64,000 nt of DNA from assembly GCA_016744795.1 (NCBI GenBank), contig JADGDR010000011.1, positions 2,770-66,769 of the forward strand, in the 5' to 3' direction. Source of the stretch: Sulfurospirillum sp. (GTDB lineage Bacteria > Campylobacterota > Campylobacteria > Campylobacterales > Sulfurospirillaceae). Made by a program: the position numbers and the translations under genes. Under the pieces are notes generated by a model that saw only the letters and a program-made list of their open reading frames with translations, had not been told where the DNA came from and did no database searches. Below, in pieces: positions 34,422 through 40,656 of this stretch (the stretch's first letter is position 1; each line of letters opens with the position of its first letter).

Positions 34422-36530
34422 ATGTTAACAAAACTACTCAAAAGAGATGGAAATACAGAAGATTTTCATGCTTACAAAATAGAAGATGCAATCAAAAAAG
34501 CTTTTAAAAGTGTAAGGGTTATTTACGATGAAAGTGTATTTAAAAATCTTATGGATAGAGTTAATGCAAAAAGAGTTGCTGCTGTTGAAGATGTACAAGA
34601 TTTAATAGAACAAGAGTTATATAAAGCAAGATATTTTGATGTTATGCGCTCATTTATGATATATCGTCATACTCACAAAATGCAAAGAGAACATGTAAGC
34701 GGACTCAATGAAGACACTACATTCATAGACTCAACTCAAACAATAGAAGAATACATAGGAAAAAGTGATTGGAGAATTAAAGCAAATTCAAATACTGGTT
34801 ACTCAAATGCAGGACTTGTAAATAATACAGCTGGAAAAGTTATAGCAAACTATTGGTTAGATAAAATCTACTCAAAAGAAGAGGGTTGGGCTCATAGGAA
34901 TGGTGATTATCATATCCATGATCTTGATTGTTTAACTGCTTATTGTGCTGGATGGAGCTTAAGAGCCTTACTAAATGAAGGTTTTAATGGAGTTAGGGGA
35001 AGAGTAGAATCTCGTCCTCCACAACACTTCCGTGAAGCTCTTGGTCAGATGGCTAACTTCTTAGGAATTTTACAGAGTGAGTGGGCTGGTGCTCAAGCAT
35101 TTAGCTCATTTGATACCTATCTTGCACCTTTTGTATTTAAAGACAATTTGCCATTTAAAGAAATTAAAAAAGCTATTAGAAGTTTTGTTTATAATCTAAA
35201 TGTACCTGCTCGTTGGGGACAAAGTCCTTTTACAAATGTAACTATAGATTGGACTGTTCCAAGTGATTTGGCTGACCAAACTCCAACTTCAGATGATATA
35301 CATCTATTTAAAAACATACAAAATAAACAACTTTTAGAAAAGGCAAATCAAAGAGGTGTTAAGGCTCTTGAAGATATGACTTACAAAAACTTCCAAAATG
35401 AGATGGATCTTATAAACCAAGCATTTTATGAAGTTATGACAGAAGGCGATAGAACAGGGCAACCTTTTACTTTTCCAATCCCAACCGTAAACATTACAGA
35501 AGATTTTAACTGGCATGGTAAAAATACTGACTTGCTTTTCGAAAATACTGCAAAAATGGGTTCATCTTACTTCCAAAACTTTATAGGAAGCCAATACAAA
35601 CGAGACGAAAATGGTAAGCTTGTAGAAGATCCTAATGCTTACAAACCAGAAAATGTAAGAAGCATGTGTTGTAGACTTCAACTTGACCTGCGTGAACTTC
35701 TAAAACGTGGTGGTGGGCTTTTTGGTAGTGCTGAGATGACAGGAAGTATTGGTGTTGTTACACTAAATCTTGCTCGTATAGGTTTTACATGTAAAGGTCA
35801 AAGAGAGTTAGTATTCAAGCAAGTTGAACGCCTTATGAATTTAGCAAAATCAACGCTAGAGAAAAAACGTGTTTTTGTTCAAGAGATGTATGATAGAGGA
35901 CTTTATCCTTACACTCAAAGATACCTTCCAGGATTTGCCAACCATTTTTCAACCATTGGTATTAATGGGATGAATGAAATGATAAGAAACTTCACTGAAG
36001 ATAATCACAACATAGCTGACGAATTTGGAATGAAATTTGCTGATGAACTCATAGAGTTTATGCGTACAAAAATGGTTGAGTATCAAGAAGAGACAGGTAA
36101 CTTATATAACCTAGAAGCAACTCCAGCTGAGGGAACTACTTATCGTTTTGCGAAAGAAGATAAGAAGAGATACCCTGAAATTTTACAAGCTGGATTTGGC
36201 GACAATATTTACTATACAAACTCTTCACAGCTACCAGCAGACTACACATCTGACCCATTTGAAGCACTTGATTTGCAAGATGAACTACAGTGTTCATATA
36301 CAGGGGGAACAGTTCTTCACCTCTATATGAAAGAGCGTATAAGTTCGGCTGAAGCTTGTAGAAAAATGGTTAAAAATGTAATTTCAAATTATAGGATGCC
36401 ATATATCACAATGACACCAGTGTTTTCTGTATGTGAAAAACATGGTTATGTAAATGGCGAGCATGAGTTTTGTCCAAAGTGCGACGAAGAACTCATAGAA
36501 AATTTCAATAAAGAGAGGGAAGAAGTATGA
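34422..36530 (+). CDS. nrdD: Anaerobic (class III) ribonucleoside-triphosphate reductase, large polypeptide lacking the glycyl-radical segment
   Basis: 702 aa with an ATP-cone N-terminus (LKRDGNTEDFHAYKIEDAI), the NrdD core (MCCRLQLDL region, thiyl-loop context) and a Zn-site-like C/H cluster CEKHGY...CPKC at the end. The ORF stops before any RVxGY glycyl-radical motif. Confidence 0.93.
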   Translation: MLTKLLKRDGNTEDFHAYKIEDAIKKAFKSVRVIYDESVFKNLMDRVNAKRVAAVEDVQDLIEQELYKARYFDVMRSFMIYRHTHKMQREHVSGLNEDTTFIDSTQTIEEYIGKSDWRIKANSNTGYSNAGLVNNTAGKVIANYWLDKIYSKEEGWAHRNGDYHIHDLDCLTAYCAGWSLRALLNEGFNGVRGRVESRPPQHFREALGQMANFLGILQSEWAGAQAFSSFDTYLAPFVFKDNLPFKEIKKAIRSFVYNLNVPARWGQSPFTNVTIDWTVPSDLADQTPTSDDIHLFKNIQNKQLLEKANQRGVKALEDMTYKNFQNEMDLINQAFYEVMTEGDRTGQPFTFPIPTVNITEDFNWHGKNTDLLFENTAKMGSSYFQNFIGSQYKRDENGKLVEDPNAYKPENVRSMCCRLQLDLRELLKRGGGLFGSAEMTGSIGVVTLNLARIGFTCKGQRELVFKQVERLMNLAKSTLEKKRVFVQEMYDRGLYPYTQRYLPGFANHFSTIGINGMNEMIRNFTEDNHNIADEFGMKFADELIEFMRTKMVEYQEETGNLYNLEATPAEGTTYRFAKEDKKRYPEILQAGFGDNIYYTNSSQLPADYTSDPFEALDLQDELQCSYTGGTVLHLYMKERISSAEACRKMVKNVISNYRMPYITMTPVFSVCEKHGYVNGEHEFCPKCDEELIENFNKEREEV

Positions 36531-36688
36531 GTAGAGAAGCAATTTTAAAAAAATTAGAAGCTAAACGAACAAAGTGTATAGTTTACACTAGAGTTATGGG
36601 TTACCATCGCCCTGTAGAGAGTTTTAATGTTGGTAAAACAGGAGAACATAAAGAGAGAGTAAAGTTTGAAGAACAACTTTCTTGCTAA
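36527..36688 (+). CDS. 53-aa glycyl-radical peptide (NrdD C-terminal segment encoded as a separate ORF)
   Basis: The ATG overlaps the nrdD TGA (ATGA). My translation is MSREAILKKLEAKRTKCIVYTRVMGYHRPVESFNVGKTGEHKERVKFEEQLSC*. TRVMGYHRPV...N.GK..E...R matches the conserved glycyl-radical tail of NrdD proteins. It is missing from the ORF track only because it is shorter than 60 aa. Confidence 0.75.
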   Translation: MSREAILKKLEAKRTKCIVYTRVMGYHRPVESFNVGKTGEHKERVKFEEQLSC

Positions 36689-37361
36689 GAAATCTGTTTA
36701 CGATATAACAAAATTTACTACGCTTGATTACAAAGACCATCTTGCGTGCATAATTTGGTTTGTAAAATGCAATATGAGATGCTCTTACTGTTACAATTCT
36801 AAAATTGTAGAGGGTGAGGGTGTCTTAAGCAACAAAGAACTATTTGACTTTTTAAAAACTAGAATTGGAAAACTTGACGCAGTTGTTCTTAGTGGGGGAG
36901 AATGCACTATAAATCCTGACATAGTAGAACTTTGTGAAGAGATAAAAGAACTTGGTTTTAAAATAAAAATTGATACAAATGGACTAAATCCAGATATTCT
37001 TAGAGATTTAATAGACTTCAGCTTAGTTGATTTTATTGCCCTTGACTATAAAGCTCCATCAGAAAAGTTTAAGCTCATCACAAAAAACAGTTCAATAGAA
37101 AAATTTTTTAAAACGCTAGATATGCTTATAGATAAAAAGTTTCCATTTGAAGTAAGGACAACAATCCACTCTGGGCTTCTTGATGAAGATGATATTAACT
37201 CCATCATAATAGACCTCAATAATAGAAGATATGAAGGAACTTACTATATACAAAACTATCTACATGTAGAAGACACAATTGACAAACTTCCTGAATTTTC
37301 AAGAGCGATGAATAAAAGTTTAATTAACAATGTAATTCCCATAGATTTTAGAAATCAATAA
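36666..37361 (+). CDS. nrdG: Anaerobic RNR activating protein (radical SAM)
   Basis: 231 aa with a TTG start preceded by a purine-rich stretch. It has DYKDHLACIIWFVKCNMRCSYCYN (CxxxCxxC cluster) and LSGGEC. Confidence 0.9.
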   Translation: MKNNFLAKKSVYDITKFTTLDYKDHLACIIWFVKCNMRCSYCYNSKIVEGEGVLSNKELFDFLKTRIGKLDAVVLSGGECTINPDIVELCEEIKELGFKIKIDTNGLNPDILRDLIDFSLVDFIALDYKAPSEKFKLITKNSSIEKFFKTLDMLIDKKFPFEVRTTIHSGLLDEDDINSIIIDLNNRRYEGTYYIQNYLHVEDTIDKLPEFSRAMNKSLINNVIPIDFRNQ

Positions 37362-37477
37362 AAAGACTTCGTAAATATTTTTTATTAACTGAAACCATAA
37401 ACAATTAAGGCAAGTTAAGATAAAATTAATATTATACGCTTCTTAAATGAAGCCTAATTTATTATGAATGGATATTT

Positions 37478-38308
37478 TTGTTAAAAACTATAAAAAGTGT
37501 TTTGATCTTATCATTTTTCTCTAGTTTAAGTGCAAAAGATATCTTAGTGTTTGCTCCTCTTCCCATGGAAAATAGAAAAACTATCTTTACTCAATTTTTC
37601 CCAATGGTAAAATATTTAGAAAATAAACTAAACAAAAAAATCACAATTAATTACAGCAAAAATTATACCAATATGCTAAAAAAAATAAAACAAGGTAAAA
37701 TAGATATAGCTTATCTTGGACCACTTCCTTATATTGAATTAAAAAAAAATTACCCTGCTATCTTGCCATTGGTACACTTTAACAACAGTGATGGAAATCA
37801 ATTTTATACATGTTCAATTGTAACTCTTATCAATAACTACACAAAAATAAAAAATATTAGAAACAAAAAAATAGCCCTTACTCAATCTCTTTCTACCTGT
37901 GGTTTTTTGAGTGTTGATGCTCTTTTACAAAAATCAAAAAATAGTTTAAACAATAATAAATATAGATACATTGGAAGACATGATAAAGTTGCTCTTAGCA
38001 TTATTAAAGGAGAATATGACTTTGGTGGAGTTAAAAGTAGTATTGCCAAAAAATACTCTAATCTTGGTCTAAAAGAGATAGCCAAAACATCTCCCCTACC
38101 AAATTTTGCACTCATAGGGAACAAAGCAACACTATCTAAAAAAACTTTACAAGATATCCAAAAAATTATGAAAAACGTAAAAAAAGAAGAATTCCAATTA
38201 TGGGGAAAGAACATTAGCTATGGCTGTAGCGAAGCTAAAGATGAAGACTATAACAATCTTAGAAAATTAAAAAGTAATATACAAATTCCTATAAAAGGTA
38301 ACTTCTAG
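37478..38308 (+). CDS. PhnD-like periplasmic substrate-binding protein
   Basis: 276 aa with a TTG start and a signal peptide (LILSFFSSLSA). The PhnD/type-2 periplasmic-binding-protein pattern is present (DIAYLGPLPY, GGVKSS). Confidence 0.75.
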   Translation: MLKTIKSVLILSFFSSLSAKDILVFAPLPMENRKTIFTQFFPMVKYLENKLNKKITINYSKNYTNMLKKIKQGKIDIAYLGPLPYIELKKNYPAILPLVHFNNSDGNQFYTCSIVTLINNYTKIKNIRNKKIALTQSLSTCGFLSVDALLQKSKNSLNNNKYRYIGRHDKVALSIIKGEYDFGGVKSSIAKKYSNLGLKEIAKTSPLPNFALIGNKATLSKKTLQDIQKIMKNVKKEEFQLWGKNISYGCSEAKDEDYNNLRKLKSNIQIPIKGNF

Positions 38309-40656
38309 TGGTAAAAAAGTCATTTGATAATTTATATCTTATTGTAATTTCTGTAACTTGTATAGTTGCAGGAACTTTAATTTTTTATATAAATCAAATT
38401 AAAATAGATAAAGAAACAACTTATTTTACTAAAAGTATTTCTACGCTAGATATTGCATATAGGGCAAGTATGGAAAAATACAAACTTCTTGCTCAAAATG
38501 TTTTTGAAGAGAAAATAAACCAAAAAAAAGTATTAGAACTCTTTTATAAAGGGACTATTGCAAAAGGCGATCAACAGAATTTATATAGAGGTATGCTATA
38601 TAAAGAGCTATATCCTCTTTATATAAAATTGAAATCTCTAAATATAATACAACTGCACTTTCATCTTAAAGATGGTGAAAGTTTTCTTAGATTTAATCAA
38701 CCAAATAAGTCTGGAGACAAACTTTTTGATAGTAGAGAAAGTATAAAAATTGCCAATACAAAAAAAGTTCATGTTGATGGGTTTGAAACAGGTAGGGTGA
38801 TTTCTGGATTTCGAAATGTTTTTCCAATTAGTTATAAAAACCAACATATTGGAAGCATCGAAATTAGTTTATCAACAAAAGCTATCATAGGTACACTAAC
38901 AAAACTTGATAAAAATAGAGAATACACAATAATTGTAAATAAGGCACAAATCAATTCAAAAATATTCAAAAAACAAAAATATTTATATAGTGAATCTATT
39001 ATAAACGCAGATTATCTACAAGAAGATTCTAAAAAGTATTTAAAAGATTCTCCTAAAATACTCTCAGATATGGCAAATAAAATCAACCAAAAACTCCACT
39101 TAGATACAAAACTTCTTATTGCCATGAAAAATGGGCAGACTTATGGAACTTTTGTCGAAATTAACAACACCTACCATGAAGTATCATTTTTACCAATGAT
39201 AGGACTTGCCAAGCAAATAGAAGGTTATCTAATATCTTATCAAACCATTACAGATATTCCAATTCTTATAAAATTTTTTATTTTCTTTCCTATTGTTATA
39301 ACAATAGGAACTATTGTATTTATACAATTGCTTTTAATTATTAGAAAAAAAGCAAATACTTTAGATTACCAAAAAAAGTGGTTTAACTCCATAACTGATT
39401 CATTAGCAGAGGGAATGTACGTTATGAATACTAGTGGAATAATAGAATATGCAAACCCTATGGCATGTAAAATTTTAGGATACAATAAAAAAGAGTTAAT
39501 TGGAAAATGTGCACATAACCTTTTTCATTCTCACTATGTAAATAATCATCTAGCTCAAAAAGATTGTCCTATATATAAGGGCGTTATAAACAATCAAGAA
39601 TTTTATAGTTCAAAAGAGTTCTTTACATGTAAAGATAATACAATGATTTGTGTTGATATTTGTAGTAAATCTATTGTTAAAAATACTGATATATCCCAAA
39701 TAGTTACTGTTTTTAGAGATATAAGTGAAAAAAAAGAGATAGAAAAAAACATGCTTATTTTAACAAAAGCTCTTGAAGCAAGTACAAATACCATAATCAT
39801 AACTGATAAAGATGCCATTGTTCAATGGGCAAATCCAGCTTTTGAAGAACTCACAGGTTATACAATGAAAGATATCCTTGGTAAAAATCCAAAAGAATTA
39901 ATAAATTCAGGAGAACAAACAAAAGAGTTTTATGAGGATTTGTGGAAAACCATACTAAATAAGAAACCATGGAAAAGTGAACTTATAAATAAGAAGCAAG
40001 ATGGTAGTTTTTATCATGAAGAGTTAAGCATAACACCTGTTCTTGATGAGAATAAAGAGATTCAAAATTTCATTGCTATAAAACAAGATATAAGTGAAAG
40101 AAAAAAGAGAGAAAATGATGTTAAACATTTTGCTTTTTATGACGCTCTTACTGAACTACCAAATCGAAGACTTCTGATTGAGCATTTAGAACAAATTATT
40201 AATACCTTAGCAAGAGTTCGTAAAAGCGTAGCCGTACTATTTTTAGATTTAGATAAATTCAAATCTTTAAACGATACATATGGACATGATGCAGGAGATG
40301 ATCTGCTTATACAAGTAGCAAGTAGATTAAATAGTACTGTAAGAAAACAAGATATTGTAGCGCGTATTGGTGGAGATGAATTTATAATCGTTTTAGATGA
40401 TTTACCAACTGATTTTTATCAAGCTAAAGAGTACGCAAAAACTATATCTGAAAAAATTAGCACTAATATAAAAACTCCTTTTAAGTTATGCAGCACAACA
40501 TATAAGATAACAACTAGCATAGGTATTTGTATATTTAACGATGAGTTATTAAGAATAGATGCCATACTAAAACGTGCCGATATAGCTCTTTATAAAGCTA
40601 AAGATACAGGTAGAGACAATGTCTGTTTTTATAGAGACCTAGTTAGCTATAAATAA
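38308..40656 (+). CDS. Membrane sensor diguanylate cyclase (periplasmic sensor domain - PAS - PAS - GGDEF)
   Basis: 782 aa with a GTG start and two TM segments bracketing a ~290-aa periplasmic domain. Two PAS domains follow, then a GGDEF domain with an intact active site (RIGGDEFIIV) and an RxxD I-site (RKQD) 5 residues upstream. Confidence 0.9.
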   Translation: MVKKSFDNLYLIVISVTCIVAGTLIFYINQIKIDKETTYFTKSISTLDIAYRASMEKYKLLAQNVFEEKINQKKVLELFYKGTIAKGDQQNLYRGMLYKELYPLYIKLKSLNIIQLHFHLKDGESFLRFNQPNKSGDKLFDSRESIKIANTKKVHVDGFETGRVISGFRNVFPISYKNQHIGSIEISLSTKAIIGTLTKLDKNREYTIIVNKAQINSKIFKKQKYLYSESIINADYLQEDSKKYLKDSPKILSDMANKINQKLHLDTKLLIAMKNGQTYGTFVEINNTYHEVSFLPMIGLAKQIEGYLISYQTITDIPILIKFFIFFPIVITIGTIVFIQLLLIIRKKANTLDYQKKWFNSITDSLAEGMYVMNTSGIIEYANPMACKILGYNKKELIGKCAHNLFHSHYVNNHLAQKDCPIYKGVINNQEFYSSKEFFTCKDNTMICVDICSKSIVKNTDISQIVTVFRDISEKKEIEKNMLILTKALEASTNTIIITDKDAIVQWANPAFEELTGYTMKDILGKNPKELINSGEQTKEFYEDLWKTILNKKPWKSELINKKQDGSFYHEELSITPVLDENKEIQNFIAIKQDISERKKRENDVKHFAFYDALTELPNRRLLIEHLEQIINTLARVRKSVAVLFLDLDKFKSLNDTYGHDAGDDLLIQVASRLNSTVRKQDIVARIGGDEFIIVLDDLPTDFYQAKEYAKTISEKISTNIKTPFKLCSTTYKITTSIGICIFNDELLRIDAILKRADIALYKAKDTGRDNVCFYRDLVSYK
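39621..39634. repeat. Perfect 14-nt palindrome CTTTACATGTAAAG (iterated motif copy)
   Basis: Read directly, inside the diguanylate cyclase CDS (encodes FFTCKD). Confidence 0.85.

Follow-up and report, generated by a model that had tools for sequence, protein, structure and literature searches.

Within a 64,000-nt stretch of the Sulfurospirillum sp. contig JADGDR010000011.1 (hereafter the window, to which all positions refer), the gene for the class III ribonucleotide reductase (RNR), nrdD, comes in two pieces: a 702-amino-acid (aa) catalytic chain, and a separate open reading frame (ORF) of 53 aa that carries the glycyl-radical loop. The two are followed by the activase gene, so that the ORFs read in the order nrdD-large, radical peptide, nrdG on the forward strand. 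We consider it very probable, on sequence evidence, that this locus encodes a two-polypeptide class III RNR plus its activase. All of the calls made here are computational. A sequence-only reading of the same DNA had placed nrdD, the ATGA overlap, the 53-aa ORF (its frame open from 36512) and the overlap with the TTG start of nrdG, and re-reading confirmed every coordinate. It had also left three explanations standing, namely a genuine two-piece NrdD, a frameshift or recoding, with a leaning towards the first, and the first is now strongly supported by the split in 77 of 77 related loci, its occurrence in Proteobacteria and phages, purifying selection on the small ORF, and the ORF's own Shine-Dalgarno-like sequence and ATG. 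The locus in the window is an ordinary member of a large, apparently undescribed family of two-piece class III RNRs.

On all sequence criteria but one, the locus reads as a class III RNR, the exception being that the radical loop lies off the catalytic chain. The 702-aa chain has an ATP-cone at residues 6–86 (PF03477, Pfam scan), and residues 122–690 match the NRDD family (PF13597) from profile position 2 to 532 of 562 with an E-value of 5e-163. Against the NCBIfam model NF006126 the chain scores 1084 bits (cut-off 548) and covers profile positions 2–658 of 684, and its matches in the PDB include 8p23 (E 2e-35) and 4coi. The triphosphate-binding HxHD motif (YHIHD, residues 163–167) and the MCCR motif at 415–418, which is that of the double-cysteine finger-loop class (PMC9669993), are both intact, and both are invariant in close homologues. 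Also invariant in close homologues is a C-x2-H...C-P-x-C cluster near the C-terminus; it aligns with the zinc segment of Thermotoga maritima NrdD (SVCEDGH...CPVCG in 4coi), and we regard it as a putative, zinc-ribbon-like element. Fifteen residues past this ribbon the chain terminates. By both Pfam and NCBIfam the RVxGY loop is absent from the same polypeptide, and neither reading of the ORF nor profile searches with the two collections found any other glycyl-radical motif in the large subunit. Because the chain stops at just these positions of the two profiles, short of the end of each, the defining radical loop would have to be supplied in trans.

The 53-aa ORF matches the end that the large-chain models are missing, at positions 531–562 of PF13597 (E 3e-7) and 549–580 of TIGR02487. 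In the Pfam and NCBIfam scans it matched NrdD models only, with no match to the GrcA or Gly_radical models. The peptide is laid out as a basic N-terminal helix, Cys17, a beta-hairpin tipped by R22-V-M-G25-Y26, and then HRPVESFNVGKTGEHKERVKF; across 69 aligned small proteins, every residue from T21 to P29 is invariant. Strong purifying selection on the small ORF is shown by its core dN/dS (ratio of nonsynonymous to synonymous substitution rates) of 0.076 and by entropies of 0.33, 0.19 and 1.11 at codon positions 1, 2 and 3. The identical 53-aa sequence is present on seven independent contigs, and its 90%-identity cluster includes the S. arcachonense protein WP_024954520. When the peptide was modelled alone with AlphaFold2 (AF2) from 69 homologues, the predicted local distance difference test score (pLDDT) was 73.7 overall and 82–86 at residues 1–30. 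The model has a helix at residues 3–13 and a beta-hairpin at 20–23/26–29 with M24-G25 at its tip, and this predicted shape is the one expected of a glycyl-radical finger.

A scan of one genome per species yielded 80 Campylobacterota loci with NrdD 72–94% identical, 77 of them scorable in that the sequence continues past nrdD. These loci come from Sulfurospirillum, Sulfurimonas, Arcobacter/Halarcobacter and related metagenome-assembled genomes (MAGs), the closest being a Sulfurospirillum MAG and S. arcachonense. Every one of the 77 has the radical loop on a separate small ORF, typically of 49–55 aa, and none has it fused to the large chain. The comparison with orthologues that the sequence-only reading had proposed bears out the two-ORF arrangement, and it shows the ATGA overlap in 22 of the 77. 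An AGGAG/GGAG-like Shine-Dalgarno sequence precedes the small-ORF ATG throughout, and in most of these loci 64–83 nt separate the small-ORF stop and the Cys motif of nrdG. In the window, nrdG, which starts with TTG, shares its first 23 nt with the 3' end of the small ORF, and the NrdG2 model TIGR02495 is matched at 185 bits (cut-off 131), with a PF04055 match as well.

Beyond the Campylobacterota, 1198 homologues of the 53-aa ORF were found in a set of 5.8 billion proteins, and the best 120 of these are all 48–73 aa long. When 1.84 billion cluster representatives (50% identity) were searched with a profile, 2280 clusters passed E<=1e-3, and 536 passed E<=1e-10; among the 150 best-scoring of the 2280, nearly all are 49–145 aa long, with many from high-GC organisms. 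With the concatenated large and small chains as the query, the best 120 proteins were all of about 700 aa and covered about 93% of the query, and none was fused. The nrdD-large, small ORF, nrdG order was also seen on a 69%-GC contig, beside an FNR/CRP regulator. A plasmid collection held 162 matching records, including those of Ralstonia, Bradyrhizobium, Cupriavidus necator H16 (pHG1) and C. metallidurans CH34, as well as Paracoccus, Cereibacter, Aquabacterium, Allochromatium and others. The three-gene order with both genes annotated is found in C. necator H16 pHG1, Bradyrhizobium, Aquabacterium and Ralstonia, and the order recurs in Paracoccus, Cereibacter and C. metallidurans.

As these gene models are already in the databases, the arrangement has apparently been "seen" but left unremarked. 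For example, RefSeq names the pair "ribonucleoside triphosphate reductase" (~676 aa) and "nrdD: anaerobic ribonucleoside-triphosphate reductase" (63–66 aa), a GenBank Ralstonia record labels the small gene hypothetical, and the CH34 genome paper gives NrdDG as Rmet_5137 and Rmet_5139 and passes over the intervening gene. The nrdDG genes of C. necator H16 are reported to be required for anaerobic denitrifying growth, in a passage of PMC2864759 that cites Siedow 1999. Since this strain has the split layout, the requirement is indirect evidence that the split system works in vivo. On these comparisons, the split is ancient, widespread and under selection, and is neither an error nor a recoding site.

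Fused relatives help to locate the break. A fused-fragment query gave 120 top matches, of which 58 are fused (zinc ribbon and Gly loop in one ORF) and 62 stand alone; the fused ones include proteins of Actinomyces, Propionibacteriaceae, Dermabacteraceae and a Burkholderiales MAG. Their linkers measure 6 residues in 23 cases, 11–14 in 30 and 18–31 in five. One of the relatives with 6-residue linkers gives a gap-free alignment to residues 592–645 of T. maritima NrdD, which span the zinc ribbon and the RIVGY loop, and this places the break after the ribbon's last CxxC and ahead of the beta-strand leading into the radical loop. The corresponding stretch in the window comes to 34 residues, of which the large chain contributes its last 15 and the peptide its first 19. 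The sequence-only reading had remarked on a long linker of about 40 residues, and rightly so, as C687 and Gly25 are 39 residues apart while the linkers of fused relatives are mostly 6–14.

What looked like a second kind of split, with the ribbon and the Gly loop together on proteins of 100–130 aa, was rejected. In three of the three loci inspected the gene breaks at a run of N or an ambiguous base, and the small proteins are fragments of fused genes that turn up as spurious genes in protein databases. These loci (L168:5786-5902, L169:4830-4932 and L170 at about 305) are independent high-GC assemblies with the break at the same place, just before the strand GGTVLHLYM; in L168 and L169 the sequence flanking the break is duplicated, as in strain-variant scaffolding or masking.

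The residue Cys17 of the peptide also has a counterpart in fused relatives, 3–11 residues past the zinc-ribbon CxxC in the pattern C-x2-C-G-x2-C. It has none in T. maritima NrdD, and a few variants have Thr instead. Cys17 could be an extra metal ligand bridging both chains, or a redox residue. The position of the fused counterpart would put the start of the peptide strand beside the zinc ribbon, and both extra segments would then emerge there. We propose that the peptide is held to the large subunit by its basic N-terminal helix, which would pair, next to the ribbon, with the acidic tail of the large chain. The hairpin would insert into the barrel next to Cys416/417, in the manner of the covalent loop of the T4, T. 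maritima and Prevotella copri enzymes, and NrdG would abstract a hydrogen atom from the peptide's Gly25. The large-chain tail in Campylobacterota has a mean net charge of -3.5, with negative values in 79 of 82 loci; at the peptide N-terminus the mean is +2.5, with positive values in 75 of 82. The polarity is swapped in Alpha- and Betaproteobacteria, where the tail bears a K(K/R)R patch and the peptide a DDE/DEE patch, which looks like compensating change in a paired interface.

Several points weigh against the two-polypeptide reading and its docking model. Charge complementarity is circumstantial, the loci are phylogenetically related, and the "DEER..C" motif is present in fused long-linker forms too, such that it is not specific to assembly in trans. 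AF2 modelling of the concatenated large and small chains was poor (mean pLDDT 56.9 with 32 close homologues) and gives docking no model support; MAFFT misplaced the small proteins against the 755-aa query, leaving the mixed alignment unusable. A Foldseek search of the peptide model, which is very small, found nothing in the PDB better than E 0.9. The making, activation and binding of the peptide are all predictions, and that the hosts of the phages described below have a split nrdD is assumed.

Copies of the peptide gene in phages suggest that the peptide acts in trans and may be replaceable. The gene was found on 120 IMG/VR viral contigs, of which 80 were fetched and examined. It is a short ORF in 78 of the 80, and on 79 there is no nrdD-large or nrdG within 10 kb on either side (at 5 kb, too, there is a single exception). 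The orphan peptides retain every invariant residue, which makes sense if the peptide joins a large subunit made by another genome. The contigs that were inspected encode terminase, tail-fibre proteins and an internal virion protein, with a holin gene directly upstream and an endolysin/lysozyme gene directly downstream of the peptide gene. Orphan copies of 47–60 aa, located in tail/lysis modules either between holin and endolysin genes or beside a terminase gene, are found in loci L081–L160 and L183–L254 (for example L186:10001-10150, L231/L133:10001-10141, L197:10001-10147 and L249:10001-10114). In Campylobacter showae, a 58-aa "anaerobic ribonucleoside-triphosphate reductase" (WP_122867024) is encoded at one end of a prophage-like region (L161–L164:8001-8177), after a gene for a 1846-aa protein without a Pfam domain; an integrase is a neighbour in one of the four places shown.

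Large subunits are rarer on viral contigs. A scan for them found only ten, none of which bears an orphan copy: five are split, one is fused (L178), and the other four show no radical-loop motif in the stretch fetched. Two metagenomic contigs (L166:3432-5909 and L167:3405-5909) carry an intein-containing nrdD of 825–834 aa, a 91-nt gap and then a 57-aa radical peptide, alongside phage-like genes (for a family-B DNA polymerase and a Tn7 TnsA-like protein); on L166, nrdG is ~2 kb further on. A tblastn search of the GenBank phage collection with the 53-aa peptide gave no match, so that the phage evidence consists of the IMG/VR contigs and metagenomic prophages.

Oxygen destroys all glycyl-radical enzymes by cleavage at the radical glycine. 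The peptide may be an exchangeable "fuse" that phages exploit, an idea that we put forward tentatively and rate somewhat short of probable. A free peptide would be activated off the enzyme by NrdG, plugged into the large subunit, sacrificed at Gly25 and replaced, so that the 80-kDa chain survives oxic episodes, and phages of Campylobacterota, with only the peptide gene in their lysis/tail modules, would recharge the host NrdD during infection; for this fuller scheme, too, our confidence stays a little below even. Its two particular steps, that oxygen would cleave the peptide at the radical glycine with only a 6-kDa piece to be replaced, and that phages would bring their own copy to take advantage of the exchangeability, are more speculative than the two-piece core and likewise rate slightly below even.

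An alternative that disputes only the fuse is neutral gene fission, in which the two chains assemble once into a stable complex identical to the fused enzyme, with no exchange of the peptide afterwards and no gain in repair or regulation from being split. It is a serious contender, although we stop just short of expecting it to be right. Fused and split forms occur in one subfamily (the 58 and 62 of the top 120 matches), one phage has the fused form, translational coupling suggests roughly 1:1 synthesis, and the split class II NrdJa/NrdJb of Pseudomonas aeruginosa is a precedent. However, orphan peptides with all invariant residues on 79 of 80 viral contigs make little sense unless they join a pre-existing large subunit, and the split has been kept in at least three proteobacterial classes and in Campylobacterota, without reversion in any of the 77 loci.

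It has also to be asked if the small protein could be a regulator or decoy that titrates NrdG or blocks the barrel, in which case phage copies would inhibit host deoxyribonucleoside triphosphate (dNTP) synthesis. That PHROGs places the phage relatives in phrog_4132, "unknown function", leaves room for such a role. We nevertheless think it very unlikely, because the large subunit has no other glycyl-radical motif, the peptide and its phage copies keep exactly those residues that fused NrdDs conserve in their radical loop, and a system of the same layout is needed for anaerobic growth of C. necator.

The remaining alternatives concern the junction itself, which varies greatly among the 77 Campylobacterota loci. 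Apart from the ATGA overlaps there are overlaps of 8 to 26 nt or more, gaps of 10–131 nt in about 30 loci, and, in two Arcobacteraceae loci, two whole genes (an insert of ~800 nt) between nrdD and the small ORF. Relative to nrdD, the small ORF is in frame 0 in 10 loci, in frame 1 in 34 and in frame 2 in 33. With overlaps, gaps, three frames and inserted genes, no single indel or recoding event explains the split. Programmed recoding (a -1/+2 frameshift or readthrough) that yields a fused NrdD is highly improbable for this reason, even though the small ORF lies in the -1 frame and a heptamer, A-AAT-TTC, is found in the correct phase at 36500–36506. The sequence-only reading had argued against frameshifting on the grounds that there was no slippery heptamer. 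That premise does not hold, yet the conclusion does: a -1 shift at the heptamer meets the TAA at 36509–36511 at once, leaving no possible fusion, and the small-ORF frame opens only after it, at 36512. The heptamer is probably a chance occurrence in AT-rich DNA, no slippery site was found within 36512–36527, and in related loci the small ORF has its own Shine-Dalgarno sequence and ATG. As for a sequencing frameshift or recent pseudogene, by which a 1-nt indel in a purine-rich run would have split a ~750-aa nrdD, the purine-rich junction and the short upstream opening of the small frame first suggested it, but the varied junctions (in-frame stops among them), the split in complete RefSeq genomes and plasmids, the purifying selection on the peptide core and the exact 53-aa sequence on seven independent contigs refute it, and we give it practically no weight.

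The genes inserted in the two Arcobacteraceae/Campylobacteraceae MAG loci (L047:5094-5919 and L052:5103-5888) form a pair that stands in opposite order in the two. In L047 they are, by Pfam, a NifU_N-like Fe-S scaffold and PAC_bac (proteasome-assembly-chaperone-like), and the pair in L052 is assigned by resemblance only. On C. necator pHG1 a "metal-sulfur cluster assembly factor" directly follows nrdG (L171:4481-4834). The presence of Fe-S genes beside nrd loci hints at dedicated Fe-S maintenance for the activase.

The features of the locus are collected in Table 1. Directly downstream of the nrd operon, at 37478–40656, are a phosphonate-binding-type periplasmic protein of 276 aa (PF12974) and an overlapping 782-aa ORF that by eye only resembles a membrane sensor with PAS and GGDEF domains; nothing here ties either of them to nrdDG. 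Weak tblastn matches of the peptide and of NrdG near 58.7–59.3 kb raised the possibility of a second glycyl-radical system in the window. That region encodes a C26 peptidase/GATase and an ABC transporter, and the matches are attributed to chance.

Table 1. Features of the split nrdD locus, in window positions (SAM, S-adenosylmethionine)
Feature	Position	Strand	Basis or remark
nrdD large subunit, 702 aa	34422..36530	+	ATP-cone, catalytic barrel, putative zinc ribbon, without glycyl-radical loop
Finger-loop motif M415-C-C-R418	35664..35675	+	Thiyl-radical cysteine site, expected to take the radical from Gly25; role by homology
Zinc-ribbon-like cluster C671-E-K-H674 ... C684-P-K-C687	36432..36482	+	Alignment to T. 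maritima NrdD Zn domain
Acidic C-terminal tail of large subunit, DEELIENFNKEREEV, net charge -5	36483..36527	+	Proposed docking partner of the peptide's basic N-terminus
Shine-Dalgarno-like GAGGG, 7 nt ahead of small-ORF ATG	36515..36519	+	Sequence reading
ATGA overlap of small-ORF start and nrdD stop (translational coupling)	36527..36530	+	Same -4 overlap in 22/77 related loci
nrdD stop TGA	36528-36530	+	ORF reading
Small subunit (radical peptide), 53 aa, stop TAA	36527..36688	+	Matches C-terminal end of NrdD models
Cys17 codon, nearly invariant fifth cysteine ahead of beta-strand	36575..36577	+	Alignments
RVMGY motif, predicted glycyl-radical site; Gly25 codon 36599-36601	36590..36604	+	Motif conservation
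nrdG activase, 231 aa, TTG start, radical-SAM; CxxxCxxC motif 36768-36791	36666..37361	+	TIGR02495 and PF04055
Terminator-like hairpin 3' of nrdG, probable operon end	37438..37453	+	Consensus scan only, weak

Many microaerophiles and denitrifiers thus already have the radical loop of an essential anaerobic RNR on a 6-kDa peptide, and some of the organisms with the split are easy to work with, for example Cupriavidus necator H16, Paracoccus, Ralstonia, Bradyrhizobium and Sulfurospirillum multivorans. With them, the open question of whether spare parts exist beyond pyruvate formate-lyase (PFL) becomes testable, in terms of free-peptide activation, untethered docking and oxygen tolerance by exchange, as does phage control of host dNTP supply with a gene of ~150 nt. 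There are also consequences for annotation: pipelines drop the small ORF or call both genes "nrdD", and such large subunits may be counted as defective in RNR censuses that demand a C-terminal glycine. We found no paper on a class III RNR split in this way; two older papers (Siedow 1999 and Wei 2014) may mention it in passing. A 2026 review (PMC13450708) and, likewise, Andorfer et al. 2021 (PMC8683613) know spare parts only for formate lyases and leave it open whether other glycyl-radical enzymes have them. If our proposal is true, class III RNR would be the first glycyl-radical enzyme beyond PFL with a "spare-part" system, and it would join class I as a two-component enzyme, catalytic and radical-carrying.

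Single-chain class III RNRs (T4, E. coli, T. maritima 4coi/4u3e and P. copri 8p23) share with the present locus the ATP-cone, the barrel, the HxHD motif and the finger-loop cysteine, as well as the zinc-ribbon-like cluster, the RVxGY loop and an adjoining radical-SAM activase, NrdG. They differ in that the loop is their covalent C-terminus, 6–14 residues past the ribbon, whereas here it is a separate 53-aa product, and both chains bear extra terminal segments at the break (15 and 19 residues). GrcA/YfiD of E. coli and Y06I of T4, the nearest functional analogues, are likewise small stand-alone radical-loop proteins, activated by the activase of the enzyme and docking into the large subunit. 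Phages encode both GrcA and the peptide, and both have an N-terminal extension without a counterpart in the parent enzyme (PMC13450708, PMC8683613). However, GrcA belongs to the PFL family, is ~127 aa long and replaces a domain that PFL normally has, whereas the peptide belongs to the NrdD family and is obligate. As the large chain never has the loop, the peptide would be an obligate subunit and not a back-up. On sequence grounds it is an analogue of GrcA and not a member of its family. The likeness to GrcA/YfiD drawn in the sequence-only reading accordingly needs qualifying: it fails for the chromosomal pair, in which there is nothing to back up, and it holds for the orphan phage copies, which do resemble spare parts.

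Other RNRs are also made in pieces. The nearest genetic analogue is the class II enzyme that is split in P. aeruginosa (NrdJa/NrdJb) and also in the Thermus phage phiYS40, where two consecutive ORFs likewise encode one RNR catalytic chain that must assemble, but that class is B12-dependent, the split point is another one, and the C-terminal piece has redox cysteines and not the radical site. Phage nrdD genes with introns, inteins and homing endonucleases (Dwivedi et al. 2013, PMC3653736) also occupy more than one ORF, and are spliced to give one chain; the junction described here has neither intron nor intein, and its products stay separate. In class I, NrdA/NrdB similarly places a stable radical on a polypeptide apart from the barrel. 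NrdB is unrelated in sequence and chemistry, being a ferritin-like metalloprotein with a tyrosyl radical that acts by long-range electron transfer, whereas in the class III system of the window a 6-kDa peptide is expected to insert into the active site itself.

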